Positions 14,166 to 48,992 of a DNA stretch of 64,000 nucleotides are shown one piece after another. This DNA comes from a virus, in IMG/VR virus record IMGVR_UViG_3300025132_000022, positions 1 through 64,000 of that record, one strand, 5' to 3'. The notes beneath the pieces were generated by a model. It was given only the letters and a program-made list of their open reading frames with translations, had not been told where the DNA came from and did not search any database. Within the stretch, counting starts at the first letter, position 1, and each line of letters begins with the position of its first letter. A program made the translations under genes and the position numbers.

Positions 14166-14181
14166 ATTTACTTCCTCCACA

Positions 14182-16906: not shown

Positions 16907-16917
16907 TGTGTTTCCTC

Positions 16918-20340: not shown

Positions 20341-20350
20341 ACTGTTCCTT

Positions 20351-23908: not shown

Positions 23909-24335
23909 AACCTAACCTTTTATAAAATCCCTTTTTTGTAATACATTTTGTGCCTGCATTGTAATAGCACAATCCCTTATCAACATTACCAACAGCGTAC
24001 ACTCTGATATGATAAGAGAGTATCTCCGCCCCAACCCTTATTGATGTCTTTGGGTCTTTTAGTTGTTTGCAAGTATACTTTGTAAACATACTTTCTGGTC
24101 CTCCAGTCCATCTAGGTACTACCTGTGTTAACCCACAAGCACCAGCGGAACTGACCGCATTTTTATAAAATCCACTTTCAACATATATAACTGCTGCAAG
24201 CAGTGCGGGATCTAGAGAGTTGCGTTTTGCCTCTGACCTTATTATATCCTCATACTTGCACATGCTACTGTGCTGATAGTCAGTTAGTTCCAAGTTCTGG
24301 TGAGACAATATGCACAGTGAAAGCAAAAATACCAT
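23859..24335 (-). CDS. lytic transglycosylase (SLT domain) with N-terminal hydrophobic segment
   Basis: LDP.LL.AVI.VES, AVS.AGA.GL.Q, YN.G motifs; TAATG coupling to thyX gives start MVFLLSLC. Confidence 0.88.
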   Translation of the reverse strand: MVFLLSLCILSHQNLELTDYQHSSMCKYEDIIRSEAKRNSLDPALLAAVIYVESGFYKNAVSSAGACGLTQVVPRWTGGPESMFTKYTCKQLKDPKTSIRVGAEILSYHIRVYAVGNVDKGLCYYNAGTKCITKKGFYKRLGYVKKVKRIYSLLSNDC

Positions 24336-25039
24336 TACTTCTCCATCTTGTTTTGTATAAACGAATGTACGGAGTGGGGAAAGTACTCCTCCGCTATCTC
24401 CAGACACGCTTCAGCAACTTGCTGGATTTCCCACTGAGCACCTTCGTGAGATCTCAATTGGATGAACTTCAAAAGGTTGTGCAGATTGACAGTGCCATAA
24501 TACTTTGTATACAAGTTTTGAGGTAGGACACCCCTTGCCTGCTCGCGACAAACTCCAGACTTTATGAGTTCGTTGAACAGTTTCAAGCATTCGTTATTGT
24601 GTGTCCTGACCATACTAGATGCAACTCCAGACACTGGCAGTCCCGATCTATTGTACTCGACAATTGGATCAATCAACTCATTCTTGCTTGCCTGCCTGTT
24701 GCTTTCGTGCTGAGTCCTGAACTCTCTTGGTTCATAAAACTGCATATCTATCGCAGTATATCTGCGAGAAATTTCATTATATGCCCAAGTGCGATGCCTA
24801 TGGTGCTGACTGCGAATAAACAGAGGCACGGTGAACCGAAAAGTAATAGCACAGTGCTCAAAGGGGGAAGAGTGGTTGTGTGCCATAAGGTAGTTGATAA
24901 GTTTAGTATCCTTTTCATCTACTTCCTCTTTTTCTGTGCCGAACGAAACTCGTGCGGCATTAACAACTGACAAATCCGAACCCATATGCGAAATGTACTC
25001 AACCGCACCGATGTCGTCTCCAAATAATTCAACCCTCAT
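24335..25039 (-). CDS. thyX: flavin-dependent thymidylate synthase
   Basis: AARVS, HSSPFEH, QHHRHRT..YNEISRRY, EQARGVLP, AQWEI. Confidence 0.96.
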   Translation of the reverse strand: MRVELFGDDIGAVEYISHMGSDLSVVNAARVSFGTEKEEVDEKDTKLINYLMAHNHSSPFEHCAITFRFTVPLFIRSQHHRHRTWAYNEISRRYTAIDMQFYEPREFRTQHESNRQASKNELIDPIVEYNRSGLPVSGVASSMVRTHNNECLKLFNELIKSGVCREQARGVLPQNLYTKYYGTVNLHNLLKFIQLRSHEGAQWEIQQVAEACLEIAEEYFPHSVHSFIQNKMEK

Positions 25040-25349
25040 TCGGTCTCCTGTATATACCAACCACGTAGTTTTCCAAAATCATGTAGTGGGTCTTCCCACC
25101 GATGTCTACTTCCTCTATCATGGTCTTGTCGACAACGATCTCCTTGGGTCCGACCGTGCCGTACTTGAGATCATGAAAATCCCTTTTACAATCTGATGCA
25201 ATATCAATTACGGTCGCCTTTATAAATCGAGATTCCTCTGTCTTAAAGTTGTTGGGTAAAATAACCCCAGTCTCAGTCTTGTCCACTTTGTAGTGGGGCA
25301 CGATACAAATGTGCCTGTTGACTGGTTTTAGTCTTTTTACCTCAGTCAT
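25029..25349 (-). CDS. groES: co-chaperonin GroES-like
   Basis: LKPVNRHI...KTETGVILP mobile loop; YMILEN.VVG C-terminal strand. Confidence 0.7.
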   Translation of the reverse strand: MTEVKRLKPVNRHICIVPHYKVDKTETGVILPNNFKTEESRFIKATVIDIASDCKRDFHDLKYGTVGPKEIVVDKTMIEEVDIGGKTHYMILENYVVGIYRRPNEG

Positions 25350-25629
25350 CAGCGCCTCCAAAGTTCTGCTTCAGGTGGTTAAAGTAATCAGTAATCATCT
25401 CAAGGTCATCGCCTTGCTTTAACATTCGATATACTTTGACTGCCATTCGCATGTCTTCCTTGGTCAACCAATCATTTTCAGCATAACTGGATCGTAAATC
25501 TCTTAAATGCTCCTTGAGTGGTTGCATCTCCTCTTCAATGGCGACAAACGCCTTGATAAATTTGACGATGTGCTCGTCCTTTGTCATATGATCTTCTTCT
25601 CTATCACCAAACATAGTAACTCCTTTCAA
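25342..25629 (-). CDS. small dsDNA-binding protein (T4 DsbA/GapR-like helical protein)
   Basis: FIK...IEEE...LKE.L.DL...Y pattern; own sigma70 promoter. Confidence 0.55.
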   Translation of the reverse strand: MKGVTMFGDREEDHMTKDEHIVKFIKAFVAIEEEMQPLKEHLRDLRSSYAENDWLTKEDMRMAVKVYRMLKQGDDLEMITDYFNHLKQNFGGADD

Positions 25630-25640
25630 TTGGTAGAATA

Positions 25641-25669
25641 ATAATACTAAATTATATCAATTAATGCAA
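25641..25669 (-). promoter_or_regulatory. sigma70-type promoter
   Basis: TTGCAT-17 nt-TATTAT in an AT-rich gap. Confidence 0.65.
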
Positions 25670-25696
25670 GTGTTTTTTTAACAAAATGAAATAAAA

Positions 25697-26005
25697 TTAC
25701 TCAAGTTTGAAACTGAGTTGTGCGCCGAATTGGTGATCAGTCTGCCAGTCATTTCTCAAAGAGTTGTTCAAAAGGTAGAATGTTCTGTAACTAATCTTCT
25801 GTGATAGTCTAAAGTTGAACCCGACACTAACCCTGTTCCTAGTGACCCGACTCTCCCTGATGGTGAAACTCTCCCTTATGAACATCTTGTCATATCCAAT
25901 CTCAACCCTGTTTTCAAACCAAAACTTTTTATTAGCGTTTGCATGCGGTGGAAACAGGAACCATACGTAGATAATGACCGCCTGTAAGAGTAGCAACCTT
26001 GGCAT
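25697..26005 (-). CDS. secreted beta-stranded outer-membrane-like protein (DUF2490-like fragment)
   Basis: Signal peptide ending ANA; alternating amphipathic strands; aromatic residue near the C-terminus. Confidence 0.55.
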   Translation of the reverse strand: MPRLLLLQAVIIYVWFLFPPHANANKKFWFENRVEIGYDKMFIRESFTIRESRVTRNRVSVGFNFRLSQKISYRTFYLLNNSLRNDWQTDHQFGAQLSFKLE

Positions 26006-26008
26006 TTC

Positions 26009-26944
26009 TCATGACACTCCCTGTACCAATAGTACTATAACAATCGACACAGACAGTCCCAACATCATTTTCATAAAGTCCCTCGCTACAAGAGGAAACA
26101 CCTTCTTCACTTTCCTGTCCATTCTTGTAGCGATTGCTAGTTCTCGACCACATAGGAGTCCTACGAACACCCAGGTCGTGCTCATTGGAATGTTGTTCAT
26201 CTGCTTGAGGTACAATAAAATAAAGGCATAAACGGCATCAATAATTGTTGCTGATCTAACGTAAGACGTGGAGGATTTCTCGATCACTATCTCCTGTATC
26301 TTGCCTCCCTTGGTATAGAACACGTACCCCAATACAGATACCAACAACACGATAACACCTGACAAGAACCCTGCGCTCATCTGTCGTGGTGCGAAAACTG
26401 CTATGTTTGCAAGGTCGTGACTTAACCAAGTGAACCACAGGAACCCCGTCGTGCCCCACTGGGCGATCCTCCAGGCGCGTTCATGATCTGGTTTGACTTT
26501 CTTCTTTTCATTCAAGTATTTGGATAAAATCATCCAAAATGCGTAAGCTACTGTTGCTGCAATGGCATACCCCATCACACTCTTCAGTAACATCTTTTCA
26601 AAAACAACAGTACTAGCAAAGGCAGACAGCACTAAAAATGTTGTGGAGACTGGGATGCCGTACCTTGTCAATAGCAACAGTACGCCTGGTGCCAAGGCGT
26701 GATACCACTCAACTGTGACAAAGGGTATCTTCTCTAAGCGTCCGAAGGATATATCTCCTCCGTACGAAAACCAACTATAAAGAACCGTAGCAACAAGAAC
26801 CGAAGAGGATGCTGCCCACAACTTCCACCAGGGTGTCTTTTTATTCGACACCATAAACGTTCCCAGGGTCTGTACAGCGTCGTTGCTCATAACAGCAGCG
26901 CCCGCAAGGGCAAGACCAACAAGGGGATAAACCATCTCTAACAT
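26009..26944 (-). CDS. PiT/Pho4-like inorganic phosphate transporter
   Basis: Two repeats, ND..QTLG/IPVSTT and HD.AN/IPMSTT; about 10 TM helices; SD AAGGAG. Confidence 0.75.
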   Translation of the reverse strand: MLEMVYPLVGLALAGAAVMSNDAVQTLGTFMVSNKKTPWWKLWAASSSVLVATVLYSWFSYGGDISFGRLEKIPFVTVEWYHALAPGVLLLLTRYGIPVSTTFLVLSAFASTVVFEKMLLKSVMGYAIAATVAYAFWMILSKYLNEKKKVKPDHERAWRIAQWGTTGFLWFTWLSHDLANIAVFAPRQMSAGFLSGVIVLLVSVLGYVFYTKGGKIQEIVIEKSSTSYVRSATIIDAVYAFILLYLKQMNNIPMSTTWVFVGLLCGRELAIATRMDRKVKKVFPLVARDFMKMMLGLSVSIVIVLLVQGVS

Positions 26945-26981
26945 TATTATAAACTCCTTTTAACTGGGGTAAGTATAGACC

Positions 26982-27027
26982 ATATTAGAGATGTTGTTGT
27001 GCCATTTGTGTGAAGTGTTTGAGACAA
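26982..27027 (-). promoter_or_regulatory. putative pho-box-like promoter
   Basis: TTGTCTC / ACTTCAC / ATGGCAC at 11-bp period, then TAATAT 11 nt downstream; no canonical -35. Confidence 0.45.
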
Positions 27028-27032
27028 GTGGG

Positions 27033-27347
27033 TTATATTGAAAAACTCTCCCCGCATCCGCAGGTTCTTTTTGCATTGGGGTTAATGAACTTGAATCCAG
27101 ACTGGTTTAGTTCGTCCACAAAGTCAATCATTGTCCCCATCAAGTAGAGGAAACTCTTACGATCAACGTAAATCTCAACCTCTCTGTCTGTTAGTACTCG
27201 GTCACCGTCATTCTTGTTGTCAAACAACAATTTGTAGGTGAAACCAGAGCATCCGCCGCCTTGGACGGCAGCGCGGACGCCTGATTCTTCCTTGTTTTCA
27301 AGCATGTCTTTCATCTTTTTTGCAGCGGATTCGGTTAGAGTTATCAT
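27033..27347 (-). CDS. iscA: Fe-S cluster assembly A-type carrier IscA/HesB
   Basis: ITLTESA, GGGCSGFTY, NPN...TCGCGESF. Confidence 0.95.
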   Translation of the reverse strand: MITLTESAAKKMKDMLENKEESGVRAAVQGGGCSGFTYKLLFDNKNDGDRVLTDREVEIYVDRKSFLYLMGTMIDFVDELNQSGFKFINPNAKRTCGCGESFSI

Positions 27348-29210
27348 CTACACGAAACTCACTTCACACGCACCACCAGCGCAGGCAACCTCACCTTTCA
27401 GGTCCGTATTGTCTTCTTCCTCCACAACCTTGGAGAGGTCAACCTTTGTAAGCGAAGACATCATTGCCTCATAAGTCTCTTCGGCGCAGTCCTCAAATGG
27501 AGCCTGTGTATATGTACCGCCATCATACGGAAGAACTGACAGACCATTGTAACTCTCTCTGTTGTCCCACATCCATTCTCCAACATCAACCCACTCGGCA
27601 TCCCTGATCGACACAGTAGCGGAGATGTTGTGAGTGTTCTGACCCTTTCGAAATCCAGGTTTTACCCACTCATCAGTGACCTGTTTTACCCTCTTCAGCA
27701 ACTGAAGTGCTGACTCCGTTCTCATTATAGCGCCCTCTGGAGCACTCTGTGGTATTGAAATAACTGCCGTACTGTGTGGACTGAAGTACTCGTCCTCAAC
27801 CAACTCTGGGTGATTTTTTACCAGGTACGAATAAATTGGTTCATTTTTTCCAACCCGAATACGACGAATATAAAAGTCATTATGCCACGCGTGAATACCA
27901 GAAGAGGTACCAAGGGCAAGACTGGTAGTGCCTGCGGGTTTAACACAAGTCGTTCTCGCCGCTTGCTTGATACCAATCAACTCAGCGACTCTTGCGTTTT
28001 CTTTTTTTACTGCCTGGGCCGCCTCTTTCATGTCCAGTAGTAAAACCTTGCCAGATGCAATACCCGTCATGGACACCCCAATGAGTGCATCCTTCTCTGT
28101 GGTTCTCCTCCATACATCCCTCAGATAATGAAAGTCAGTGTAACTCGCCTGAAGCGTTCCGATGAAGGTAGCCGCTCGAACCCTATCATTGAGATCCTCC
28201 TGACTTTCAAGATCAGATACGTTGACTTCAGTTAAATTACAAAACTGGTAAGGGCGGAGTCCGATTTCGCAGCAGGGATTGGTGCCCCAGTCTTTGTCAT
28301 TCGAAAAATAAAACCCAGGTTCTCCTGCGCCTGATGCCTTTACCCGATCCCATAAGTTCATAAAATATTCTTTATCAATCTTGTGTCTCAACAGCACAAC
28401 TGAGTTATTTGCTCGACCTCTTTGAGGGTTGGTCTCCCACCAATTGCCAGTCTTAGCAGCAATCATCTCCTCGTCGTCGGCGGAGAATAGCGAAATCAAT
28501 GCTGCCCTGCGAATGCCTCCCGCAAGTACAGCATCTGCGATATGGCAAACCATGTCATGAACCTCAATAGAAGAAAGTTTGTCACCATTCTCCTTTTCAG
28601 ATAACATACCCTCTAATTTCACAAGACACTCTCTGAGTGGTTGTGGTCCAGGTGCTTTGCCACCCGATGTCACGAGTGCAGCACCCTTTGGACGTATGTC
28701 CGTATAATCAAATCTAAGTCTGGATCCTCCATTGAAATAGGAACGAACCAGTGCTTTTACAGCATCTGCCCAACCTTCAATAGAGTCGTTGACCAAAAAC
28801 CTTCGTGTTCTATTCATGTTTGGTCTAGTAATTTCTGGTAGTTTTTCGACGTGATGCTTTTGAACACTGTATCCAACACCCGTACCACCGAGCAGCAAGA
28901 ACATCGCCTCGCCGAATGAACGCCAATCGTCGATTGGCATGAAGGCACAGTTGAAAATCCTGTTTGGAGCAACTTCAATAGGTTTGCCGCCGAACTGCAA
29001 GGACCTCATAGAGGGCAGTACCTTCTTGTCAAAAACTAACTTATAGTTCTTTCTAATTTGTAATTCTAATTCTGGAAACTTCTTTAGATGCATTTCCATA
29101 TTTCTTGTAACCAGTTCGTGCCAAGTCTCTCTCCTATTTTTTTCTGGCACATACTTGGCGTACTTCATGTGCACAGTTATTTCTGACAAAATGTCATTTG
29201 ATAAACTCAT
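27348..29210 (-). CDS. nrdJ: class II (adenosylcobalamin) ribonucleotide reductase
   Basis: FNCAF, G.GVG, RRAALI, TNPCCEI, CNL, VKPAGT, C-terminal CAGGAC. Confidence 0.92.
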   Translation of the reverse strand: MSLSNDILSEITVHMKYAKYVPEKNRRETWHELVTRNMEMHLKKFPELELQIRKNYKLVFDKKVLPSMRSLQFGGKPIEVAPNRIFNCAFMPIDDWRSFGEAMFLLLGGTGVGYSVQKHHVEKLPEITRPNMNRTRRFLVNDSIEGWADAVKALVRSYFNGGSRLRFDYTDIRPKGAALVTSGGKAPGPQPLRECLVKLEGMLSEKENGDKLSSIEVHDMVCHIADAVLAGGIRRAALISLFSADDEEMIAAKTGNWWETNPQRGRANNSVVLLRHKIDKEYFMNLWDRVKASGAGEPGFYFSNDKDWGTNPCCEIGLRPYQFCNLTEVNVSDLESQEDLNDRVRAATFIGTLQASYTDFHYLRDVWRRTTEKDALIGVSMTGIASGKVLLLDMKEAAQAVKKENARVAELIGIKQAARTTCVKPAGTTSLALGTSSGIHAWHNDFYIRRIRVGKNEPIYSYLVKNHPELVEDEYFSPHSTAVISIPQSAPEGAIMRTESALQLLKRVKQVTDEWVKPGFRKGQNTHNISATVSIRDAEWVDVGEWMWDNRESYNGLSVLPYDGGTYTQAPFEDCAEETYEAMMSSLTKVDLSKVVEEEDNTDLKGEVACAGGACEVSFV

Positions 29211-30589
29211 TAATTCGACCCTCCTTTAAACTCTTTGTACTTTTCATTTAACAATTTTTTCTGTCTCTTTGCAGCATTTTTGACAAAATCCTCCATGTCT
29301 TCTTGGGACATTGGTTTGGGCAGGACCTTGATCTTCACATTGGACGTATCCATAAATATGGGGTAAATTAACCCATCGGGACCATTTCTGTTCTTTGCGA
29401 CAAAAATTCTCCCAGTGTTGCTGGTCTTGTCTTCTACTGTTCTGGAGACGGAGAAAATAAAATCTGCAACGAAACACTTGTTGAATGCTTCAGAAATTGA
29501 CTCCATAGTGATAACCTCTGCATTTAGACCAGACCTATTTGTTTGGGAAGCAGTCCATATGGGGCAACCCACCTCTTGCGATATGCCTCGCAATTCCTCA
29601 TAAATAGATTCAAGTTGGTGTCTTTTCTCTTCTTTCGAAGATCCCTCTGGTTTTAACAGGTCTGCATAATCAACAATAATGACGTCTGGTACGAAGTCTT
29701 GATTCCTCATCTTCTCGATATGGTTCTTTATCGTCTGTACAGATGCAGATCTTGTTGGATACTCCTTCACTATCAGTTTGCCTGGAAGATCTTTTAATTC
29801 GTCATATATTTGCTCTTTGAACGCTTGGATATTGTTAAGATCATACCCTGTGATGCAACTGTCGTACCTATTTGCAACCACTGTGTCGGCTAACTCTAGC
29901 GTATAGTGTACAACATTCTTGCCGTCCTGCAGTGCTCTTGATCCGAGGTGCACAAGAACCATAGATTTTCCTGCACCTGTTGGTGCTATAACAACGCCAA
30001 GTTCCCCTTTACCGAGTCCACCTTTCGATATTTGATCCATAGGTGTCCACCCAGTTGTGACAGGATTTCTTGCCTTCTTTTCAAACCTTACTTCGAAATC
30101 CTTCATGTAGTCATACCCAAGGTCATTAGATGTGCCTAGTTTGATAGCATCGTTAATAACCTTGGCGATGTCGTCGAAGGAAGACTTCTTCAAAAGAGGG
30201 ACACACCTGATCATCGCCTCTTGTAATTTTTGCTTCTTACAAAAGTCAAGTGCAGTGTCCTTAATATACCCAGACTCCGAATTGTCAATCCTTTGAGATA
30301 AGACTCTGGCATAGTAATCTCTCAACAGTTTCTGTACGGAATCCTGCTGTTCAGATATGCCAGTTCTGAGAATGCTTGTCATGGTATTTGTAGTTGGATG
30401 TACACCATACTTCTTTTTGTATTGCTTGATCTTTTCGACGAAGACTCTGAGATAGGTCAATTCCAAAAAGTTGACGTCCAGTACTTCAAATATCTGATCA
30501 GCGAACGGTCTGTCGACTAAAATTAAATGGCATAAGTTTTCCTGAAAGTTCTTTCCGAACTTTGAGAAGTCCTGTTTAGTTTTATCCAT
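29210..30589 (-). CDS. dnaB: replicative DNA helicase (DnaB / T4 gp41-like)
   Basis: APTGAGKS, TLE, IIVDYADL, TASQTNR, KNRNG. Confidence 0.93.
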   Translation of the reverse strand: MDKTKQDFSKFGKNFQENLCHLILVDRPFADQIFEVLDVNFLELTYLRVFVEKIKQYKKKYGVHPTTNTMTSILRTGISEQQDSVQKLLRDYYARVLSQRIDNSESGYIKDTALDFCKKQKLQEAMIRCVPLLKKSSFDDIAKVINDAIKLGTSNDLGYDYMKDFEVRFEKKARNPVTTGWTPMDQISKGGLGKGELGVVIAPTGAGKSMVLVHLGSRALQDGKNVVHYTLELADTVVANRYDSCITGYDLNNIQAFKEQIYDELKDLPGKLIVKEYPTRSASVQTIKNHIEKMRNQDFVPDVIIVDYADLLKPEGSSKEEKRHQLESIYEELRGISQEVGCPIWTASQTNRSGLNAEVITMESISEAFNKCFVADFIFSVSRTVEDKTSNTGRIFVAKNRNGPDGLIYPIFMDTSNVKIKVLPKPMSQEDMEDFVKNAAKRQKKLLNEKYKEFKGGSN

Positions 30590-31557
30590 TAGTTATAATT
30601 TACCCCAGACTCAACCATCGAGTTAAATGTCGTCTTCAGGCAGTCCATGTTTAATGACGTCAATCCGTCGATGGACAACATCTTGTTAATCTCGGTTCGG
30701 TTGAACGTTGGTTGATACCCCTCGAAGGTCGAGTTTATGTGATTGGCACACTGAACAGAAATGAGAGGTGTACTTAACTGCATGATAGAGTAATTATCGC
30801 ACACTTTCTTATAGTCCTGAATTACCTTGTTGTAAACTGAAAGTTTTGACTCCTGTCTTTCAGAGTGCTCCTTAAGATCACTAAGGTAATAATCCTTGTC
30901 TTCGGCAAGAAATGGGAATGCCTTGGCAACTGTCTTAAGTCCGACGCCCTGCAGTCCGTCAATGTTGTCACTCTTATCACCAACCATGGACCTGGCCAGA
31001 GCAAAGTTCGTTGGGTGGATTGAGTGCTCTTCTAGGACCCTATTTGTATTCAAGATTTGATCCTGAGTTGGTCGCATTAGCAGGGTCTTGCTGTCCAAAA
31101 GTTGGATGAAGTCCTTGTCACTCGATATGATAACCTTTTGCCAATCGGTCAAAACTGGTAAAGATTTTACATACGATATAACATCATCTGCCTCAACACC
31201 TGGTTGTCTAAACTGGATGATGGGCATCTGGTTGACATACTCAATACACCTCACTTGTTGCCAAATTCTGTTTGTATGAATTTGAGCAGGATTTAAGGAT
31301 TGCGACCACCTGTTCAACTTTGGAGGTTTTCTTCCAACCTTGTAATTCTTGTTCTGCTTCCTTCTTTTATTGGACCCGCCGTCACCGTCCCACACCACTA
31401 CAAAAAGGTCAGGTCTCACTTGACGACATAGTTTGTTCATAGTTTGCAAGAATCCCACTACGCCGCCAACGGGGTCGCCGTTTGGTGACATGGTAGGATT
31501 AACAATATAAGACCTCATAAACTGGTTCTGTGCATCCACCAGCATCAACCTTTTCAT
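30589..31557 (-). CDS. 5'-3' exonuclease / flap endonuclease (Pol I N-terminal or T4 RNase H-like)
   Basis: LVD, VWDG, YK..R, EADD, SDKDF.QL, GDKSDNI.G..GVG.KT. Confidence 0.93.
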   Translation of the reverse strand: MKRLMLVDAQNQFMRSYIVNPTMSPNGDPVGGVVGFLQTMNKLCRQVRPDLFVVVWDGDGGSNKRRKQNKNYKVGRKPPKLNRWSQSLNPAQIHTNRIWQQVRCIEYVNQMPIIQFRQPGVEADDVISYVKSLPVLTDWQKVIISSDKDFIQLLDSKTLLMRPTQDQILNTNRVLEEHSIHPTNFALARSMVGDKSDNIDGLQGVGLKTVAKAFPFLAEDKDYYLSDLKEHSERQESKLSVYNKVIQDYKKVCDNYSIMQLSTPLISVQCANHINSTFEGYQPTFNRTEINKMLSIDGLTSLNMDCLKTTFNSMVESGVNYN

Positions 31558-31563
31558 AATAAC

Positions 31564-31662
31564 CTATCCCTTCTTTCTGTATTTGTGTAGCGCCAGACCT
31601 ATAATCAACATGCTAATTGCTGAATATAAAAATTCTTTGTCGCTGAAGATGCCTTCAAACAT
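31564..31662 (-). CDS. 32-aa single-TM peptide
   Basis: MFEGIFSDKEFLYSAISMLIIGLALHKYRKKG after GGAGG; overlaps the upstream stop. Confidence 0.45.
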   Translation of the reverse strand: MFEGIFSDKEFLYSAISMLIIGLALHKYRKKG

Positions 31663-32071
31663 TTCCCCCTCCTCTAGCAATCTCAACAGCCTCGGTGAAA
31701 CAGATAACTCCGTCCAGTCCATGCAGAAGAACTGGGTTTTTTCTCTTATTGAAGTTCTTATCATCGTCTGGTACTACGACATAAAACTTACACTCTTTTT
31801 CAGAGAAAATCTCGGACTTATAACAAAGGGCGTTGTATGCTTTCTGTTTTGCTCTATCGGTTCTAAGCGAAGTTGTTAGATCAAAAAAAACTATGCTTGA
31901 CTCGGTCTCAAGACAGAAGTCAGAATCTATTTTTTGTGAGTTTCCGTGTTCATTCTTGAACTGAGGTTTTAGTTTTGCCTCCAACTTGCCAATTCCAGTC
32001 TTTTCAGAAAACAATTTTTCAAAACTGTTCCCTGCTCTCGCTCTTTTTCCATTTTCTATAACAGCACTCAT
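31655..32071 (-). CDS. small PD-(D/E)xK-fold protein resembling CCGG-family type II restriction endonucleases
   Basis: GNSFE helix, SD, T.SLRTDR (R-x-D-R); SD AAGGAG. Confidence 0.55.
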   Translation of the reverse strand: MSAVIENGKRARAGNSFEKLFSEKTGIGKLEAKLKPQFKNEHGNSQKIDSDFCLETESSIVFFDLTTSLRTDRAKQKAYNALCYKSEIFSEKECKFYVVVPDDDKNFNKRKNPVLLHGLDGVICFTEAVEIARGGGNV

Positions 32072-32086
32072 GAGTAACTCCTTAGT

Positions 32087-32114
32087 AAAAAAAACCCCCT
32101 GCTTTCACAGGGGG
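32087..32114 (-). terminator. Rho-independent terminator after recA
   Basis: CCCCCTG-TGAAAG-CAGGGGG followed by T8. Confidence 0.88.
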
Positions 32115-32129
32115 CGACCGAACACTGTG

Positions 32130-33269
32130 TCAGTCTTTGGTGGGTGTTTCATCTGGATCGTAAAAATCAGAGGCATTCCCTGTTTTATTACTGAACTTCA
32201 TGATAACATCTTCGTCCATGATTTGCAACACTCTTTTTTGGAATTTTTCGTCTTGCAATTTCTTCAACCAGTGTGCTCTCTGGAACTTCTCTCTTGTCCC
32301 ATCCTCGTGCACAAGAGAATACCAAGCACCTGATTGCTCTAGGTTTTCAGATATCTGAATCGCATCAAACCAACTTTCCTTATCCTGTACGCCAACACTT
32401 TCTGCGTCGCCCCAGAGGATTTTAAAGTTGCAAGTTCTTCCTGTAGAACCGAATCTGGACTTTTCGATTTTACACTTAACCTCAGAACCAATCCTGAACC
32501 CATTCTCATCCGTGACAAAAGACGCCTTAGCTTTTCTCCCTGTCAACCATATCCTCAAGGAATAGGAGTACGGCAACGTCTTCCCTCCTGGAGTCATGTA
32601 TGGCGTAGTCATTGCTTCAGACGGTGACCGAGTGATGTTAGTCTTCAGTTGATTAAGGACTAGCAGTGTAGCGCCAGCGTTGGCAATCGGTTGAACCAAC
32701 TTAGGCATACCCTTCGACAACACTCTCGCTTTCATTGCCATAGACGACTGGGGATCAAAGTCTGACTCAAGATCGTGCTCAGATGGCGTGAGTGCAAGGG
32801 AATCCCAAATAAACAACCACTTTTCTGGCATTTTCAACAAGTTTTCGATTGTCTCCATAACCATCTCGACAGAGTGTGCCTGGATATAAACCAATCCATT
32901 CTCTTCATCGTCGACGTCACACCCTGTTCTTCGAAGGAAGTCTGGATCAATGGCAGACTCTGAGTCGAAGTAAGCAACTCGACACCCCATCTTCTGAGCG
33001 TTGGCGGCGACTTGGGCTGCCATAAATGACTTACCTGTCGCCTCCAGACCTGCAATCTCGGAGATCTTACCCACTGGAATTCCCGCATACCTGCCCTTGC
33101 AGGTAATAGAGTCCAACCAACGGGAACCAGTCGGAATCCACTCCTTGACTTCCGTTGGGTTCTCTTCTCCAAGATTGTAGGCAACCACACCACCTGACGA
33201 CTTGTTAAGTGATGCGATTATGTCCTTGGTGGAAAGTCCACCTGGTTTAATTTTTCTTATCTTCCCCAT
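32130..33269 (-). CDS. recA: RecA/UvsX recombinase
   Basis: IPTGS..LD, G.EATGKS, DSE, WDS, NQ, TPGG, K.RF. Confidence 0.95.
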   Translation of the reverse strand: MGKIRKIKPGGLSTKDIIASLNKSSGGVVAYNLGEENPTEVKEWIPTGSRWLDSITCKGRYAGIPVGKISEIAGLEATGKSFMAAQVAANAQKMGCRVAYFDSESAIDPDFLRRTGCDVDDEENGLVYIQAHSVEMVMETIENLLKMPEKWLFIWDSLALTPSEHDLESDFDPQSSMAMKARVLSKGMPKLVQPIANAGATLLVLNQLKTNITRSPSEAMTTPYMTPGGKTLPYSYSLRIWLTGRKAKASFVTDENGFRIGSEVKCKIEKSRFGSTGRTCNFKILWGDAESVGVQDKESWFDAIQISENLEQSGAWYSLVHEDGTREKFQRAHWLKKLQDEKFQKRVLQIMDEDVIMKFSNKTGNASDFYDPDETPTKD

Positions 33270-33280
33270 TCGACACTACC

Positions 33281-34045
33281 TCAATTCTGAAGGAGACCGT
33301 TAAAGGCTCTGTCTACAGCGGACTCTTCAGACTCTCCACTGCTTGTGGTGATACCACCGCGAGTAATTTCAGAACTATCTTCCGTATCTGCACTCAAGTG
33401 CGAGTCCAGAATTGCCTGAACCTCTTCTGTCGTGCGTCTCTCGAAAACAGTGTCGAGATTTGGCACCTTCTCAAGGAGTTCGGCACATCGCTCGTCACCG
33501 CCCACGGCGTCATCACAAAGAACTGACTTTCTTGGGCGAGGTCGAATATCCGTTGTTGGATATGATGCACCTGGCTGCTTGCCATACATTAATTTGAGAT
33601 CGTTACCGTCCTCTGGATCGGTAATATCCCCGTAATCAGGGTCGAGAACAATACCAAGAAGTTTCTGGTATGCCAACTTGCCATAACCCCAAACCTTAAT
33701 TCCTTCGGACTCTTCACCTCGCACAAGCACAGGTGAAAAGAATCTCTGTTTTGCAAACATGCCCTTTGCAAGTTGCTTACTCTCTTCTGTCCCTTCGTTC
33801 CAAAGTTTGTTCCCAAAGTCACAAACTGGACAACTGTCTCCAAAGTTTCGCTTTGGGCACAGGAACGATTGCTCTCCCACGCCATAGTGGAAAAACTTCT
33901 CCTTGAACGGGTCTCCGTCCGCTGTCGGAACAATACGAATATTGTTCTCGCCATCTTGTGGACGCCAGAAGTTATTCTTTTTACCGTCGCCCTTTCCTGA
34001 TAAAGAAGCCATCTTTTGCTTCATGAGATCTAAATTCAGTGCCAT
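33281..34045 (-). CDS. single-stranded DNA-binding protein (T4 gp32-like)
   Basis: FWRP..G...IRI.P, FHY, CP......CPVC zinc site, DITDP..G, acidic C-terminal tail. Confidence 0.85.
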   Translation of the reverse strand: MALNLDLMKQKMASLSGKGDGKKNNFWRPQDGENNIRIVPTADGDPFKEKFFHYGVGEQSFLCPKRNFGDSCPVCDFGNKLWNEGTEESKQLAKGMFAKQRFFSPVLVRGEESEGIKVWGYGKLAYQKLLGIVLDPDYGDITDPEDGNDLKLMYGKQPGASYPTTDIRPRPRKSVLCDDAVGGDERCAELLEKVPNLDTVFERRTTEEVQAILDSHLSADTEDSSEITRGGITTSSGESEESAVDRAFNGLLQN

Positions 34046-34111
34046 TATATTACCTCCTTATGGTATTGTTTTTTGCACACTTGTCGGTAAAACTTCCGAC
34101 CAACTTTCTAT

Positions 34112-34140
34112 ACTATACTAAATGTTTATTTGTTTGTCAA
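34112..34140 (-). promoter_or_regulatory. sigma70-type promoter for ssb-recA
   Basis: TTGACA-17 nt-TATAGT. Confidence 0.8.
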
Positions 34141-34680
34141 CTGTTTTTTGTAATGTCTGAAACATCTTGGTTCATACATTTCTGATCCGCCAATCAATAA
34201 CTCTCTGTCATCATCAAACTTTCTGAACGTAAAGTAGGCATCCTCTTGGCATTGTGCGCAAACTGATGGACACTTTACAATCTTTGTCGCCCAGGGCATC
34301 ATCTTGGCGACCTCGACAAATGGCTCTGCCTTGGAAGACAAGTCCAGACTCGATACTAACACAGACACTCCCGACTTGTAAAGACTTATTACAACATCAG
34401 ATGCGCCTTCGATCATAAACGCTTCATCTATGGCAACAACTTCAGCAGGAGTGTCTTCTAGAAACTCAAGGATGTCTGTCCCAGAGGTGACACATTTCGC
34501 CTCGATGCGGCCGCCATTGTGAGTCACGATCTCCCCAGTGGAATATCTGTCATCTATCATTGGTTTAAAAGCAGATATGGACTTTCCTTGGTACTTGTAC
34601 CTCTCTAGTGCTGCAATGAGTCTCGTTGTCTTGGACCCGAACATGGGACCAACGAACATGATTAAATCAGGGTTCCTCAC
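34126..34680 (-). CDS. tdk: thymidine kinase
   Basis: GPMFGSKTT, KP.IDDRY, IDEA, C..C, IGG.E.Y..RC..H. Confidence 0.95.
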   Translation of the reverse strand: MRNPDLIMFVGPMFGSKTTRLIAALERYKYQGKSISAFKPMIDDRYSTGEIVTHNGGRIEAKCVTSGTDILEFLEDTPAEVVAIDEAFMIEGASDVVISLYKSGVSVLVSSLDLSSKAEPFVEVAKMMPWATKIVKCPSVCAQCQEDAYFTFRKFDDDRELLIGGSEMYEPRCFRHYKKQLTNK

Positions 34681-35517
34681 TCAAAACTCCTGAACTTTTG
34701 AAGAATACTTCTTTATGTAACAAAAGTCTGATTCATACTGTGTCTGATAGACTCCGTAACTGTATTTGCACAATTCCTGATTTTTTTCTTTGATTAATTT
34801 AATAATATTTCTCTGTAGGTTTCTGTCCTGCTCCAAACTTACCTTGGATATACCGTAGTAAAGTCTCGCATCCATAGTATCCGTCATCGGGAAAAGTAAA
34901 CTTTCAGAACCGTCCTCTATCTTTAACACGCCGAGTGTACAAATTCGCCTTGATTCATTGATAATTGAAAAATTGCTGACCTCCGAATCCTGATGATCAA
35001 AAACCATCACCATATGAAACATAGAAGCAATTAAGTTGTTTATCGCTGGATAGTATTCTTTAATACTTGCATCTTCAACCATACTATCCATTTCAGAATT
35101 ACTTGTCAAGTAGATATTTTTAAAAAGTCCAGACCTAGCATATTCCTGCAAGATAGAGAAAACCATCTTTTCGTGCATTGCTTCAGTCTCGTCCAGAAGG
35201 TCTTGCTCAGGTCTGACGCAAACGACAGTTATGGTCTTGTCTCGAATCTGGTGTAAAAATTTGAGAGCAATAGAGGAAACGAGACTTGATCCACTAAGCA
35301 CAAAAATAACATCTTGCTTAATCTTGTCTTTTATTCGCTTGGGTATGGTCTTGAAACTTTCTTCATATTGTTCTGGTGAACTTTGCTTCTTTACCACCAA
35401 CTTATCTTTAAAATCCATTGGTTCGTCATCAACACACACGACGTTGTATTGAGAATAGTTTTCAAAACACTGGGCAACCTTGCATCCGACACCGCCCAAT
35501 CCAATAACTGTATACAT
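34681..35517 (-). CDS. divergent tubulin/FtsZ-like protein (PhuZ-like)
   Basis: VIGLGGVGCKVA T1 loop, V.P, I....N, N..IA spacing; GGGTG(S/T)G signature replaced by SGSSLVSS. Confidence 0.65.
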   Translation of the reverse strand: MYTVIGLGGVGCKVAQCFENYSQYNVVCVDDEPMDFKDKLVVKKQSSPEQYEESFKTIPKRIKDKIKQDVIFVLSGSSLVSSIALKFLHQIRDKTITVVCVRPEQDLLDETEAMHEKMVFSILQEYARSGLFKNIYLTSNSEMDSMVEDASIKEYYPAINNLIASMFHMVMVFDHQDSEVSNFSIINESRRICTLGVLKIEDGSESLLFPMTDTMDARLYYGISKVSLEQDRNLQRNIIKLIKEKNQELCKYSYGVYQTQYESDFCYIKKYSSKVQEF

Positions 35518-36626
35518 TAAACCTCTTTCATATCTCTAAAGTTCTTGCCTATGCTGGAATTAACAACGTAATTGCCGAACCTAGTTTCGCCGAAGATCCT
35601 CTTTGCCTCTAGAAACTTACCCCGATCTTCTTTGGCATAATCTAGTATAACAGAGTCGTGCAACAAATAACAAATTTTTGTCCTACAATCTTTAAATAAT
35701 TCTCTTAATTTGTACGCCTGCTCAATGCAAATGTCACTGCTTGTGCTTTGGACAATATAATTCAAGGACCTTCTTTCGTCCGTTTCAATAAATCGAGAAA
35801 AGGGGGTCTGTACGCCATCTTTATACCTATACTTGTCTTTGACAAGATCCCTGTCATAAAACCCCTCTAATAGCGAATCTCGCGCTTCAGGGTTATACAA
35901 CCAAGCAAAAGTCCTCTTCTTCATATCCTCGCGAGACAGTTCAGTTTTTGCCCTTGTCCACTCGTGTATATCCATGCCAGGTTGTTCATTACCCGATAGT
36001 GCCAAGAGTGTTCTCAGTTCCGCTGCGTTGAAGTCGAATTCAACAAAAAGATCATTGGATGGTTCCAGAAAGGCGCGCTCATCCTTTTTCATCGTTAGTA
36101 TAGGGATGCCAGACTGTTTATTTGATAGTCTGCCAGTCCTTGTGCCGAAGACACTGTAGTTTGTGTTCTTCAATTCTGACTTGTAGATGTTTTCTCTGGC
36201 GTTCATCTCCTCAGTCAAAATGTGCGCCTTCTTCAAGATGTCATAGTGGCCTGGTTTTGGAACATTGTCAAATACATTCTTTATAATATTTTCTTTGTCC
36301 TGCAAAAACGACGTAAGTATATCTAGCGGTATGTAATCATAAATGCAGTAGTCTCTAATATTACACTTTGCAGTCAAAACAGATTTCATGATCGCCGAAA
36401 TCTTGTTTGAGTTGTTTTTCCAAGAATCTTCAATAAAAATAGGACACACAGACTCCAATGTTCCATCGGAATACAAGAACGCGTAATCGACGTCCTCTCT
36501 AGAGGTTAGGTGTACTGAATGCTTCCAAGTTCTGTTCATCTCGGGCGCATCGCGATAATCTGCAAAATCACCTGTCCTGTAGACCTTTAAGCATTCGCTA
36601 TTGTTATCAATAATTTGAAAATACAT
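35517..36626 (-). CDS. minimal family-A DNA polymerase (polymerase domain only)
   Basis: TRTGRLS, motif A DFNAAELR, motif B R...K...F..LY, NY.VQS, motif C HDS. Confidence 0.8.
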   Translation of the reverse strand: MYFQIIDNNSECLKVYRTGDFADYRDAPEMNRTWKHSVHLTSREDVDYAFLYSDGTLESVCPIFIEDSWKNNSNKISAIMKSVLTAKCNIRDYCIYDYIPLDILTSFLQDKENIIKNVFDNVPKPGHYDILKKAHILTEEMNARENIYKSELKNTNYSVFGTRTGRLSNKQSGIPILTMKKDERAFLEPSNDLFVEFDFNAAELRTLLALSGNEQPGMDIHEWTRAKTELSREDMKKRTFAWLYNPEARDSLLEGFYDRDLVKDKYRYKDGVQTPFSRFIETDERRSLNYIVQSTSSDICIEQAYKLRELFKDCRTKICYLLHDSVILDYAKEDRGKFLEAKRIFGETRFGNYVVNSSIGKNFRDMKEV

Positions 36627-37705
36627 TATATGTAATAGTCTGTCTTTGTGTTTAAAATTTTTCTTTCCAAGTAATCCAAGGATCTTTCTATTCCATGTTT
36701 TATTAGCAAACTATAACAGATCTCAAAATGCCTGTCAAGCTTTGATTCAGGAATATATATGTTTTCTTCTATCGCCCGTACATTCACATAGAACCTGTAC
36801 CAATCCTTACTAAAAAAGGAATTCATGGCATCGTCGACAGCGCGACGGTCAACTGAATATCTTTTTGCTTTTATAGTTCCATCGTGACAAACATTGTAAG
36901 CAACATCCTCATCCTCTGCAAAGTACAAGAGTTCATAGTACTCTCTTATTTTACCTCTTAATTTGTCGAGATCGTAACCTCTGCAGTGATAGTAAAAACC
37001 GTCATTACCATATCGACCAGAATAATCCGTCATAGGACCCGTATTGTTGGCCACCAAACACCAGGGGGCGTGTTTTAAAAGTACAAAACCAGTTGAGGTC
37101 AACATTTCTGTAAACGCTGGAAACGACGGACTGTCCAATATCTTCCTTTTCAGATTCAGGGTCGAGGTTCCATGACTGACATCCAGGAGATCTATCACTA
37201 GTCCCGAAGCGTGCATCGGACACAGCCTAGACTTAACAAAACCAGAATAAGTTATCGGTGTTTGGTTAGAGAATTGAACCAACCCTTGCAAGACAAAATT
37301 AGTAAAATCGCCCATTCCCTTTATTTTTTTCTTGTTCGGTAGTATGAAATTGGCATATATGGCAGTAAACAGGAACTCCAATTGTATGTCGTAAAGTTCT
37401 AGAGGGTTGACATACCCTTTCTTTGCATGAAGTATGGGCAAACCGTTAATTGGGTTTTCTAACCTTTCATATTTCGCCTTCAGATCCGTAAAGGCATCAA
37501 CAACGTAACAGAGTGCACTCGCGTCAGTACCTGGAATTTGTTCTATGGCTGTTTTGTTCAGTGGCGCGATAGCGCGTCTATCTCCATCCACGCGACCATA
37601 GAGAGATTGACGCAAATCCCTATTATCGAATGCCAAGACTTTAACTGGGTTTGCATCATTCACTATGTATTTAAATGAGTCTATTAGGGTCTTCCTCGTT
37701 GTCAC
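36626..37705 (-). CDS. hypothetical protein at end of baseplate operon
   Basis: 359-aa ORF coupled to both neighbours. Confidence 0.65.
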   Translation of the reverse strand: MTTRKTLIDSFKYIVNDANPVKVLAFDNRDLRQSLYGRVDGDRRAIAPLNKTAIEQIPGTDASALCYVVDAFTDLKAKYERLENPINGLPILHAKKGYVNPLELYDIQLEFLFTAIYANFILPNKKKIKGMGDFTNFVLQGLVQFSNQTPITYSGFVKSRLCPMHASGLVIDLLDVSHGTSTLNLKRKILDSPSFPAFTEMLTSTGFVLLKHAPWCLVANNTGPMTDYSGRYGNDGFYYHCRGYDLDKLRGKIREYYELLYFAEDEDVAYNVCHDGTIKAKRYSVDRRAVDDAMNSFFSKDWYRFYVNVRAIEENIYIPESKLDRHFEICYSLLIKHGIERSLDYLERKILNTKTDYYI

Positions 37706-40700
37706 TTCTTCGCCCTCTTTTTCAATTGCTCTTTTATCATTTGTATGTCTTCTTCCGACTTGCCTTGCTTCCTTAGAGGTTCAACCTGAGAATCTATTCT
37801 TTTCTCCGTCGCGATGGCCTGAGCTTTTGCTCGCGCCTTTTTAGATTCCGTCTTTTCATATTTGAGTTTCCTGGATTGACGCTTGTCGTATCCAGGTCTC
37901 AGTCTGTCAATCGCTTCCGACCAGTCTATCGTCGCTTCATTGTAACATTTGAAGACCGTCTCAAAACCGTTAGGACTTAGTTTGTGTTCCACATTGATTA
38001 CGTTGTATAATCCAGTTATTCCAACCTCTTTAAATATTGGAGAGTTGTTAATGTCATCCACTCCGATCAGGGACGGTTTGATGAAAAAAGACAAACCAGG
38101 ACAAAAGTCCAACAGTCCATAACTCGTTACGTCGACATTGTACAACTGTGGAATCATGACAAGTCCCTGTTCGGAATTGTATGCCTTGATTATGTTATCG
38201 TCTTGCTTTGCTTTCATCGACTGATTCTCAACTTGCTTGAATACAATCTTCTTTATTATGCTCCTGTCTTGTCCAACTTCCCACTTGGATAGTTTCTGGG
38301 CATCAATTAATTTCAATTGCGTGGATGCCTGGGACATCGTGTAATAAAATACTGACTGGTCTGTCGACTTTGACTCCGTACCGTATCCTCTGGCATAAAG
38401 TTGTGCAACCGTGGGTTTGAGTTTTAAATATTCAACGCCCTTAGCATCTGTTCTGAATTGTCCGCACTTTACACTATATGCAGAATTATAGCGACCCGAA
38501 TCTAAAACATAATCACCCTGATTAAAATATCTCTGCACCTCCATTAGAAAGGCAGTAATCAACCTCTGTAGAGTAAGTCTTCGAGAAGTCGAATTTTCAA
38601 AATCACTCATGACCTTTTGGTATACCTGCATCGCAATAGGAACACCATATAAATTTTGAAACTTACCATCAAGATTTATATTACCAAGCATGATGTGCAC
38701 CTTTTCTCCCTTTAGATAAGATTCAGACTCACTAACCTCCAAAAAAGCATTGATAATGTCACCAAGTCTAAAATAATAGACTGAATGCTCGCTATCACTT
38801 ATGGCGGCCGCTTCTTTCTTTTCGTTTGCGTCGGCATCGGCAACGGCGGCGTCTGATTCTTTCTTCGCCTGGTTCTCTCCAGTGCTGTCGCCCTTCTTTA
38901 TCTTTGCATTGGCCACTGCGCGAGCGTCATCCGCCTTTTGTTTGTTCTCTTTCTGTTGTGCGTCTTTGCTTGTTGTGGAACTTGAATCGGACTTTTCGAT
39001 TGTCTTTGCGACTGCCTTTGTCTTTCCTGATTTGTCCTTTTTTGTCTTGGCGGTATCAACCTGGTCAGTTATGTCCCTTGTCGTACCGTCTGGCAGTTTA
39101 ACACTCAACCCTGGTAGTTCCTCACCTTTCGAATCGCGAGTTACGATTAGTCTTTCAATTTTTGGAGGTTGCATCGGCGTTGCACCTGCTTCGATATCTG
39201 TTGATATGTACAGTCTAACTCTACACTTCTGCTTGAAAGGTCCAACCTTCATCTTTGGTGAGATCTTGGCAGGCATTGTGTCAGTGTCTTTTACGGTATT
39301 TTTCGCTACTGTTGGGTAGTGAGGCGCAATAACTCTATCGAATGCCTTTTTGAACATCCTCTCCTTCACGGTGGATCCCATAACTGCGAATCTGTACATC
39401 TCGCTTCTTTCTACCAACTTATTCAAACATCTTTTGATTTTTTCACTCTTTTTGTCTTGGAAGTACTGTGTGTGACGATTTATAAATTCTGGTACTTTCT
39501 TTTGGTCCTTTACTCTTGTAAAGAATTCTACAATGTTGTTTTTCGTGTTGAGTCCAACTGTAGGGTGAACCCTGTTTATGTATTCATGAACCATTTTTTC
39601 AGATTCTTTTGGTAGAGTTTTTCGATAGGATCGATCTTTGAATTTCTTGTTCAGTTCCACGTAGTGCTCATTAACTAGAGTGTCGCCCTCTGACATCACA
39701 TCCGTATCTTGCAAAGTTTCACTAACTCTGGAAACGTAGTCTGCTTGAAGTATAAAGGATCCATCATCATTGAAGTTGAAGGTGTGCTTGTAATAGGACA
39801 TAACAAAAGTCTTCATCTGCTTTTTGATCGAATCCACCTGAATTTTAGTAAACCCAAGTGCCTTTTGGGTGCTTTCGCTAGGTGTTGCCCACCCTATTCG
39901 CATTAACAAATCCTTTGGTCCAAATATTGACCCACCGAGGCCTTCTGGTTGTATTAACGGCACATAGTGCTTCCGACCCCTTTCTCCACTAAAAACAGAT
40001 AAGTTAGATCCATAGAAAGTTACTGTTGAGTCTATATCTCGTTTAGCAGTCTCTGGGGTATCGCCCGCCAAACGAATAGTCAAGTCCTGTAAACCAAGCA
40101 CGCTTTGAAAGTTGTTTATTGCTGCGACGCCTGTTTGTCCTTTAGTAGAAAGTCCTCTGTTTTGAAGAGGTATTGAGGTCAATTTGGGTGTAGGACCGCG
40201 AGTTCGAATAAAGAACTCCACTTGAGGTGTGAGCGCAGATAGCTGAGCATTGTTCAGCGTGACCAATGGGTTGACCAAAAAACCTTCATAATCTTTGCTT
40301 TTTACGTTATTCATCCTAAAATTAAAAATGTTTGTTAATCTATTTGTATTCATGCCTTTCGGTAAAGAAAAGACGCGTCCCGTGTCTTTAGATCCGACCT
40401 TTTTGCGCCTAGTCTTGCTGTGCGCTGGTGAATCTATGATTTGGTTTGCGTACATGCTTAAAAGGTGCTGGTCCTTACTACCCTTTCTGAGTGAAATATA
40501 TTTGTCCTGTATCTTGTCAAATGCTCGTTCGGCGGATTCAGGAATAAAAGCTTGCACCATTAAACTTTCACGACGTTCTGATTCGTCGATAGTCTTCTTT
40601 GCAACCTCTGTGGCAATTGCCCCATCTGCGCCCATGAACCCTGACTGGTATGCGCGTTCATCGACGAGTGCAATTCTTTTATCTAACTGTGTCAACCTCG

Positions 40701-41457: not shown

Positions 41458-41460
41458 TGT

Positions 41461-42731: not shown

Positions 42732-42732
42732 T

Positions 42733-47573: not shown

Positions 47574-47584
47574 TTAGCAGTCCT

Positions 47585-47893: not shown

Positions 47894-47916
47894 AGGGGTC
47901 TCCACCAGTAAATAGT

Positions 47917-48940: not shown

Positions 48941-48992
48941 TAAAACCTCACTTTACTAAAACTATTATAAACTAAAATAAATATCTTTTTTA

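Follow-up and report, generated by a model that had tools for sequence, protein, structure and literature searches.

A small gene for a putative CCGG-family-like nuclease, associated with viral genomes that lack CCGG

Both solitary restriction enzymes and restriction enzymes encoded by viruses have been described. PacI is a solitary restriction enzyme whose carrier is safe since its genome contains no recognition site (Ershova et al. 2012, PMC3488263), and in the account given by Jeudy et al. (2020, PMC7253447) the restriction enzymes of chloroviruses degrade host DNA for nucleotide recycling, while those of marseilleviruses exclude competing viruses. The restriction enzymes of the CCGG family, as described in PMC5389614, read the CCGG core via an R-(D/E)R motif, in several members reach GG through the minor groove by means of an N or Q, and have a permuted active site, PD-K-X12-13-(E/D). 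The present work concerns an open reading frame (ORF) of 138 amino acids (aa) at 31655..32071 on the minus strand of a 64,000-nucleotide stretch of viral DNA (positions 1 to 64,000 of IMG/VR record IMGVR_UViG_3300025132_000022, hereafter the window). Its translation, alignment and structural model point to a minimal PD-(D/E)xK protein with the fold of the CCGG family, and the genome that carries it is devoid of CCGG.

The resemblance to PacI is twofold, as no methyltransferase was found with the ORF and carrier genomes are site-free (no CCGG against 138.5 expected in the viral record containing the window, and none against 200.4 in G411, a complete 293,850-bp carrier). PacI is a bacterial enzyme of HNH-type fold with a rare 8-bp site, whereas here the site has 4 bp, is expected 140-200 times, and is missing from viral genomes of 120-290 kb. 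The likeness to the chlorovirus and marseillevirus enzymes would lie in the offensive use of a viral restriction enzyme; those viruses, as far as they are described by Jeudy et al., use a cognate methyltransferase, whereas the virus of this ORF would rely on site absence. A cognate methyltransferase is also what separates the ORF from a Type II restriction-modification system, none of four Pfam families having been found in the record (67% complete), nor any conserved neighbour at 70 loci. Free-standing homing endonucleases (seg/mob-like, HNH-AP2) are similar in that they too are small nuclease genes found sporadically in intergenic gaps and tRNA arrays, but the fold and motif of the ORF are those of a reader of a 4-bp palindrome, and its presence is tied to the genome-wide loss of that palindrome. 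A full-text literature search (subscription journals not covered) turned up no account of a viral nuclease of restriction type that is kept safe by lacking sites, nor of the combination seen here (viral, methylase-less and half-size, with an altered active site and with a word of 4 bp gone from as much as 294 kb).

The absence of CCGG is real and far beyond chance. Throughout the window (1..64000, both strands) the count is zero, against 65.7 expected from a second-order Markov model and a mean of 90.6 (standard deviation 10.0, largest 114) in 100 dinucleotide-preserving shuffles, which bears out the first-pass annotation of this DNA. The whole record, a single contig of 121,518 bp with a CheckV completeness of 67%, is equally free of the word, and CCGG has the lowest observed/expected ratio (O/E) among all 256 tetramers there. 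The same annotation had taken several comparison sites to be common; this holds for GATC (307 observed, 321 expected) and GCGC (125/131), which are normal in the window, whereas GGCC (43/84) and CGCG (67/120) are present but moderately depleted. In the record CGCG stands at 118 observed against 230.8 expected, and the words of RGCY, which we take to be the site of a CviJI-type enzyme, are depleted, not absent (AGCT 35/184.8, AGCC 38/196.2, GGCT 34/152.1, GGCC 84/161.4). The loss of CCGG can also be followed site by site: when 74 CCGG sites of seven close relatives were aligned to this genome (about 73-75% nucleotide identity), none of the 74 was kept. Other palindromic tetramers were kept at 0-33% of aligned sites, the lowest being AGCT (0/13) and GGCC (1/18), both of which are depleted in this genome anyway. 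In the sites sampled from two of the seven relatives (L009 and L020), CCGG was replaced mostly via single-base changes to CCAG, CTGG, CAGG and CCTG.

Sequence relatives of the 138-aa ORF are few. A word-indexed search of 5.8 billion clusters yielded four, and 16 representative clusters among 1.84 billion are related to it at E <= 0.001. The ORF belongs to no Pfam or PHROG family and has nothing relevant in NCBIfam, tblastn against 50,697 phage records gave no match, and single-protein scans of IMG/VR found nothing for it or for the family members P0007 and P0012. In the Protein Atlas its nearest clusters are unnamed viral proteins. Feature-based neighbours there include clusters of short (151-160 aa) MunI-like proteins, 88% viral, and of ApaLI-like proteins, both scoring 0.90; as a lead only, viruses may have other half-size restriction-like proteins. 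In the family alignment of 16 sequences, with identity down to 28%, N7, G14, D51, D64, T66, R73, Q76 and K77 are invariant and T25, G26, N40, D49, R70, K75, G118 and D120 nearly so; E18 (present in 14 of the 16), D72 (12 of the 16; P0007, P0010, P0012 and P0017 lack it) and N80 also count among the conserved residues.

That the protein has a PD-(D/E)xK fold, with the CCGG family as its closest solved relatives, emerges from an AlphaFold (AF2) model built from this alignment (mean predicted local distance difference test, pLDDT, 84.6; predicted template modelling score, pTM, 0.79). When the model was aligned to each of 48,161 representative PDB chains, independently of Foldseek, the seven best chains were PspGI (Z 8.9), Bse634I (8.7), the Upx C-terminal nuclease domain (8.4), PfoI (8.4), Cfr10I (8.4), SgrAI (8.3) and NgoMIV (8.3), with 120-136 of the 138 residues aligned. 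Six of these seven, all but Upx, are CCGG-family restriction enzymes (root-mean-square deviation 3.4-4.9 A over 128-136 residues), as the first-pass annotation had supposed from sequence strings; further members rank lower (BsaWI 7.1, AgeI 6.8, EcoRII-C 6.2, Ecl18kI 5.7, Kpn2I 5.5). For a ranking of a predicted model, the weight lies in the occupation of the top of the list by one small family, not in the height of Z. Foldseek against the PDB gave weak matches only, none at E <= 0.001 and mostly to PD-(D/E)xK nucleases, PspGI having the largest query TM-score (0.57). Resolvase-type folds (Hjc, VRR-NUC, NucS-like, AF1548) appear in the ranking at Z 5.3-7.4; Hjc itself, at 5.3, lies below the restriction enzymes, and the ORF has no Lys at the D-x-K position.

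The recognition motif is kept as well. The strings GNSFE, TTSLRTDRAKQ and FYVVV, picked out in the first-pass annotation, are indeed in the translation, along with IDSDF, and R70-x-D72-R73 opens the helix that follows the third core strand, at the same distance from the strand as in NgoMIV. As references for that family we used the genes L172 and L173, full-length matches to PF09015 (E 6e-102 and 8e-91), with 24 more members, 26 in all. These genes carry GHGFE, IRPDIV and SCKLTLRTDRAQN..TEAL, where the ORF has GNSFE and IDSDF as counterparts of the first two, and over the motif segment the NgoMIV family reads SISCK-LTL-RTDR-AQN-ARTE-AL and the ORF FFDLT-TSL-RTDR-AKQ-KAYN-AL. The likeness to NgoMIV pointed out in the first-pass annotation is therefore genuine. 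The PD aspartate and the Glu on the first helix are also retained, D64, invariant, sits at the canonical second acidic position of PD-(D/E)xK enzymes, and the spacing of 11 from N7 to E18 equals that from Q86 to E97 in AgeI, as given in PMC5389614. Apart from these features the ORF departs from its structural relatives in being 138 aa long against the 258-325 aa of the top-matching chains, in having no N-terminal or effector domain, and in being viral and without a partner methyltransferase, whereas L172 and L173 each adjoin a C5-methylase-like ORF. The first-pass annotation had seen no methyltransferase gene in the window, and no DNA methyltransferase of Pfam PF00145, PF01555, PF02086 or PF05869 was found in the 121.5-kb record, which is 67% complete.

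Like its structural relatives, the protein is predicted to form a symmetric dimer. Two copies pair through residues 38-46, 72-87 and 112-121 with a median ipSAE of 0.63, where the best of three controls had 0.00, and the runs have at least 89% of contacts in common, with a partner pLDDT of at least 81. Of 30 proteins whose solved structures are homo-pairs 20 come up to this mark, as does one of 23 solved as single chains; since related dimers have been solved in the PDB, the result may reflect likeness to known structures. K77 lies on a helix face outside the predicted interface.

The distribution of the gene links the nuclease-like protein with the missing word. The RecA-like protein encoded beside the ORF retrieved 80 related loci (68-95% identity), none of which has a homolog of the ORF, and these loci summed to 1632 CCGG observed against 1584.7 expected. 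Taking O/E < 0.2 as depletion, 7 of the 78 informative gene-less loci are depleted, and in the nearest relatives, whose RecA is 95% identical, CCGG is at a normal level (13/16.5, 15/16.7 and 30/26.4). In the syntenic set of 78 loci with both RecA and the 5'-3' exonuclease that flanks the ORF, this genome and L001 included, the two genes are separated in 71 of the 76 relatives by at most 250 bp (mostly 41-180), without any ORF that reaches 80 aa. The 138-aa ORF or its homolog lies between them solely here, in a gap of 576 bp, and in L001, in one of 519 bp; the RecA of L001 is 71% identical, and its CCGG count is zero as here. The gap is an insertion hot spot, L076 having an HNH-AP2-type homing endonuclease of 185 aa in the same place (1664-2221) and L073, L079, L080 and L085 other inserts.

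In this phage group the set of avoided sites changes rapidly. The loci L006-L010, with 95% identical RecA, differ sharply in their missing palindromes, CCGG being normal in all of them: L006-L008 have no AGCT, GGCC or GATC, and L009 and L010 have GATC at 83/101.9 and 50/70.6. AGCT is near zero in many relatives of the RecA group.

Outside that group, homologs were found at five IMG/VR loci and at 64 metagenomic loci, the latter via the pattern [FYL]R[ST]DR[ALI]KQK. Together the 64 metagenomic loci contain 22 CCGG against 463.2 expected. Among informative carrier loci (expectation >= 5), 33 of 34 are depleted; when proteins are grouped at 80% identity into 22 clusters, 16 are informative and 15 of these 16 are depleted. 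The words avoided along with CCGG vary by lineage (TCGA in one, GATC in many freshwater lineages, CATG in some, GGCC/CGCG in others, and RGCY), and CCGG is the sole avoided word common to carrier lineages. The surroundings vary too, no neighbour family being common to more than 10 of 70 loci, and at L115 and L116 (also L112, L129 and L167) the homolog lies within phage tRNA arrays of 8-21 genes. The 21 tRNA genes of L115 and L116 are without any CCGG, and their sister contigs L126 and L135 have CCGG in tRNA genes.

A second group of relatives was reached through the Hsp70 gene adjoining the homolog in L109, which retrieved 56 loci of viral genomes of about 300 kb and 30% GC whose CCGG content ranges from zero to above expectation. 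Whole-record searches of 30 records, their CCGG class judged from a locus of about 20 kb, found the gene in 3 of the 13 that are CCGG-free or nearly free and in none of the 17 that bear CCGG (one of these 100% and one 91% complete); as a positive control the gene was recovered in 5 of 5 known carriers. GATC, too, is wholly absent from G411 (L230-L244; 0/745.5 in 293,850 bp) and from the gene-less G420 (L245-L254; 0/483.4 in 195,527 bp), and most freshwater carrier loci have no GATC. The low-GC (23-33%) carriers G006 (L094-L101) and L109 have a full-length Hsp70 (641-852 bits), and in G006 DUF7487 proteins follow a fragment of a family-B polymerase, with an asparagine synthase and an M3 peptidase encoded as well; the G006 sequence is found again within a 346,561-bp metagenome contig. 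No match to a nucleocytoplasmic large DNA virus (NCLDV) capsid was found in the 140.7 kb of G006, and these carriers of the 300-kb class may be jumbo phages or giant viruses.

The association is one-way: the gene is almost always accompanied by the lack of CCGG, and the lack of CCGG does not imply the gene. The co-variation proposed in the first-pass annotation is thus found among carriers and fails in the converse. As an association the link between gene and missing word is strongly supported; its mechanism is a proposal. For what the protein binds, whether it cuts, what it attacks and in what order gene and site loss arose, we propose the following. The ORF would encode a free-standing, minimal, homodimeric member of the CCGG-reading endonuclease structural group that has no methylase. 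Two copies would pair through the helix after the recognition motif, with R70, D72 and R73 at the start of that helix reading the CCGG core in the major groove and N7 perhaps contacting GG in the minor groove. E18, D51 and D64 would hold the metal for cleavage, and the missing lysine (T66) may come from elsewhere, for example from the invariant K77. A phage without CCGG cannot be acted on by such a protein, so that a methyltransferase would be unneeded. Targets would be any CCGG-bearing DNA in the infected cell, and the benefit could be attack on the host chromosome (nucleotide supply, host shut-off), exclusion of co-infecting phages, or both. The gene would behave as a mobile accessory that persists only in genomes free or nearly free of CCGG and, once settled, enforces the complete absence of the word. 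A one-way association is what would be expected if the protein acts on unmodified CCGG and so harms any genome containing it. By analogy, the spread of the gene resembles that of free-standing homing endonuclease genes. We put the probability that the ORF is a mobile, methylase-less, CCGG-directed nuclease tolerated only by CCGG-free genomes at roughly 0.55.

A number of observations weigh against this proposal, and several concern the protein itself. Searches of PDB sequences with a 5-sequence profile gave no match at E <= 10, and with the 16-sequence profile one chance-level match only, to an AVO1 domain (E 0.19). The hhalign comparison with the 26 NgoMIV-family proteins has a probability of 3.35% (E 0.013) and is not significant, although its register speaks for the kinship, D51 being paired with the PD aspartate, R70/D72/R73 with R200/D202/R203 and N80 with E210. 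Also in favour, and independently, the Cfr10I/Bse634I family PF07832 is matched by 3 of the 16 family members over the recognition-motif segment and the BsaWI family PF18643 by 2 of the 16, but the best PF07832 match (P0008, E 4.7e-5, residues 64-112 on profile positions 186-237) scores 23.3 bits, below the gathering cut-off of 27, and the ORF itself has none; no member of its family reaches a curated threshold for PF09015, PF07832, PF18643 or PF09019. Z-scores of 8-9 are just above the level often reached by models without clear matches. Above all, the Lys and Glu positions of the CCGG family are occupied by T66 (T, S or C in relatives) and N80, as the first-pass annotation had suspected, and the permuted PD-K-X12-13-(E/D) signature is not found in the ORF. 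With these two residues replaced, catalysis is putative: in its modelled structure the ORF groups with the CCGG family while failing that family's catalytic signature, and the protein may cut via a rearranged site or may merely bind.

Other such observations concern the association. All metagenomic carriers have the R-x-D-R motif because the search pattern includes it, and the loci are related, not phylogenetically independent. Four kinds of gene-less DNA are poor in CCGG: G001 (RecA 88% identical, 146.6 kb, 81% complete) has no homolog and 9 CCGG against 167.8 expected, G420 (195.5 kb, 65% complete) is gene-less with 0 against 178.8, L063 is gene-less in its sequenced part with 0/13.8, and ten incomplete records of the Hsp70 group are CCGG-free or nearly so with no gene in the sequenced part. 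Conversely, the carriers L144 and L155, of one clade, have normal CCGG (6/6.1 and 5/4.0); L126, whose copy of the gene is intact, has 5 CCGG, all of them in tRNA genes lying less than 500 bp downstream of it; L171 has 10/39.5; G006 has 4/21.1 over 140.7 kb, CCGG being still the most depleted tetramer there; and L162-L164 have 1/6.7, 1/4.1 and 1/6.7. The proteins of the L144/L155 clade (gene at 10001-10387 in L144) read DITNTYRSDRAKQKGYNS, with N67, G78 and S81; no methyltransferase was recognised on reading the ORF translations of at least 90 aa in L144 5000-11916, a reading made without a family scan. Finally, a purge brought about by a CCGG restriction-modification system of the host would mean that CCGG in the host is methylated and perhaps resistant. 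Because gene-less, CCGG-poor relatives such as G001 and G420 exist, the loss of CCGG is wider than the gene, and the earlier suggestion that the gene itself purged the site lacks support in that form, the refuting condition named in the first-pass annotation (gene-less relatives equally free of CCGG) being in part borne out; a gene that only genomes already rid of CCGG can tolerate fits at least as well as one that drives the purge. Candidates for the original remover of CCGG are host restriction systems, other nucleases, and rival viruses with this gene. The further suggestion of an anti-restriction decoy is rejected, because a CCGG-free genome needs no protection from CCGG enzymes.

The altered active site raises the alternative that the protein binds CCGG without cutting, as a catalytically dead restriction-enzyme derivative by which non-self DNA containing CCGG is marked or blocked; it might, for example, obstruct transcription or replication in the host, or serve another nuclease as its targeting subunit. 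This would account for the replacement of the catalytic Lys and Glu in all sequences examined together with the retention of the recognition motif and of the dimer, and harm done by tight binding to the virus's own DNA would equally produce the association. We nevertheless find it unlikely, as the acidic residues E18 (14/16), D51 and D64 (both invariant) are kept though needless for a mere binder, D64 restoring the canonical PD-(D/E)xK acidic position, and no conserved partner gene adjoins. A quite different explanation would have the association arise by coincidence via shared hosts, the sites having been purged under host or third-party CCGG restriction and the ORF having nothing to do with CCGG. 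It might then be a recombination or repair nuclease, and could be, for instance, a Holliday-junction resolvase working with the neighbouring RecA, single-stranded DNA-binding protein (SSB) and 5'-3' exonuclease. Its place between RecA and the exonuclease, near a gp32-like SSB, its 138 aa and predicted homodimer (as in Hjc-type resolvases), the resolvase-type folds at Z 5.3-7.4, the CCGG-free genomes without the gene and the few carriers with CCGG would all agree with such a role. Against it, 15 of 16 informative clusters lie in CCGG-depleted DNA, compared with 7 of 78 control loci, while the remaining avoided sites change from lineage to lineage; elsewhere among viruses the gene stands in tRNA arrays or unrelated contexts, away from recombination genes, and 76 of the 78 syntenic relatives do without it. 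With CCGG-family enzymes above the resolvases in the fold search and R-x-D-R conserved besides, coincidence seems improbable.

Equally improbable, in our estimation, is a free-standing homing endonuclease in whose long target CCGG is no more than a part, and to which the genome-wide absence would be unrelated or loosely related; such a gene would pass from phage to related phage when its product cuts the empty site and the gene is then copied in. The sporadic occurrence in a conserved intergenic gap (2 of 78 loci), the HNH-AP2 homing endonuclease that L076 has in that very gap, and the insertions in tRNA arrays of other phages among diverse neighbourhoods are what one would expect of it. A long target, on the other hand, neither requires nor correlates with losing every CCGG in 120-290 kb, and a symmetric 138-aa homodimer would have little surface for a long asymmetric site.

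The ORF is set in a replication and nucleotide-metabolism block, with the order ribonucleotide reductase, DnaB-like helicase, 5'-3' exonuclease, ORF, RecA-like recombinase, gp32-like SSB, thymidine kinase and family-A polymerase. The upstream anchor of the insertion site is the RecA/UvsX-like recombinase (32130..33269, minus strand; Pfam PF00154, E 6e-32) and the downstream anchor the FEN/RNase H-like 5'-3' exonuclease (30589..31557, minus strand; PF02739, E 1.6e-25). Between the recA-like stop and the ORF, a consensus scan gave a terminator-like hairpin (32094..32115, minus strand; 9 pairs, 6 of them G-C, and a T-run), a pattern match only, and with this hairpin upstream the 138-aa ORF may head its own transcription unit. 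A Shine-Dalgarno-like AAGGAG, read from the sequence, stands at 32078..32083 on the minus strand, 6 nt upstream of the ATG at 32071. On the other side, the sequence and its frame list give a small hydrophobic ORF of 32 aa with its own GGAGG (31564..31662, minus strand), whose ATG overlaps the stop of the 138-aa ORF (ATGTTTGA), with its start 8 nt before that stop, and which ends 6 nt before the exonuclease gene. There is no space for it in the 519-bp gap of L001, which contains only the homolog. Further along the block, a short family-A polymerase of 369 aa (PF00476, E 1.4e-10; window 35517-36626) is found near an ORF of 1251 aa (37702-41457).

The phage is present in marine metagenomes from several studies, five DNA runs holding at least 60% of the sampled words. 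A DNA run from another study contains 531 bases (31474-32004), covering most of the ORF, with zero differences, and transcription is weakly hinted at by an oligo-dT RNA-seq library in which a contig of 250 nt matches 31647-31896 exactly.

When phages avoid restriction sites, this is usually taken for a mark left by host defence. In the present case a viral gene of restriction-enzyme ancestry is almost confined to genomes without the word that its family reads, which gives a simple genomic rule, that a carrier has zero sites, testable on thousands of viral genomes. It is possible, although we hold the idea to be doubtful as a whole, that methylase-less mini restriction enzymes of about 130-140 aa are selfish weapons spreading among large aquatic viruses (marine phages and freshwater viruses of about 300 kb), immunity to which consists in having lost every copy of a 4-bp word from genomes as large as 294 kb. 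Such a weapon would select for CCGG loss in rivals of the same host, which would explain the CCGG-poor relatives that have no gene, and a large part of viral site avoidance might then stem from warfare of virus against virus. If active, the protein would be very small for a site-specific enzyme of restriction type, at about half the length of the chains closest to it in structure, with a rearranged active site of interest for enzyme engineering, and viral discrimination of self from non-self would in this case be achieved by the absence of the target instead of by its methylation.

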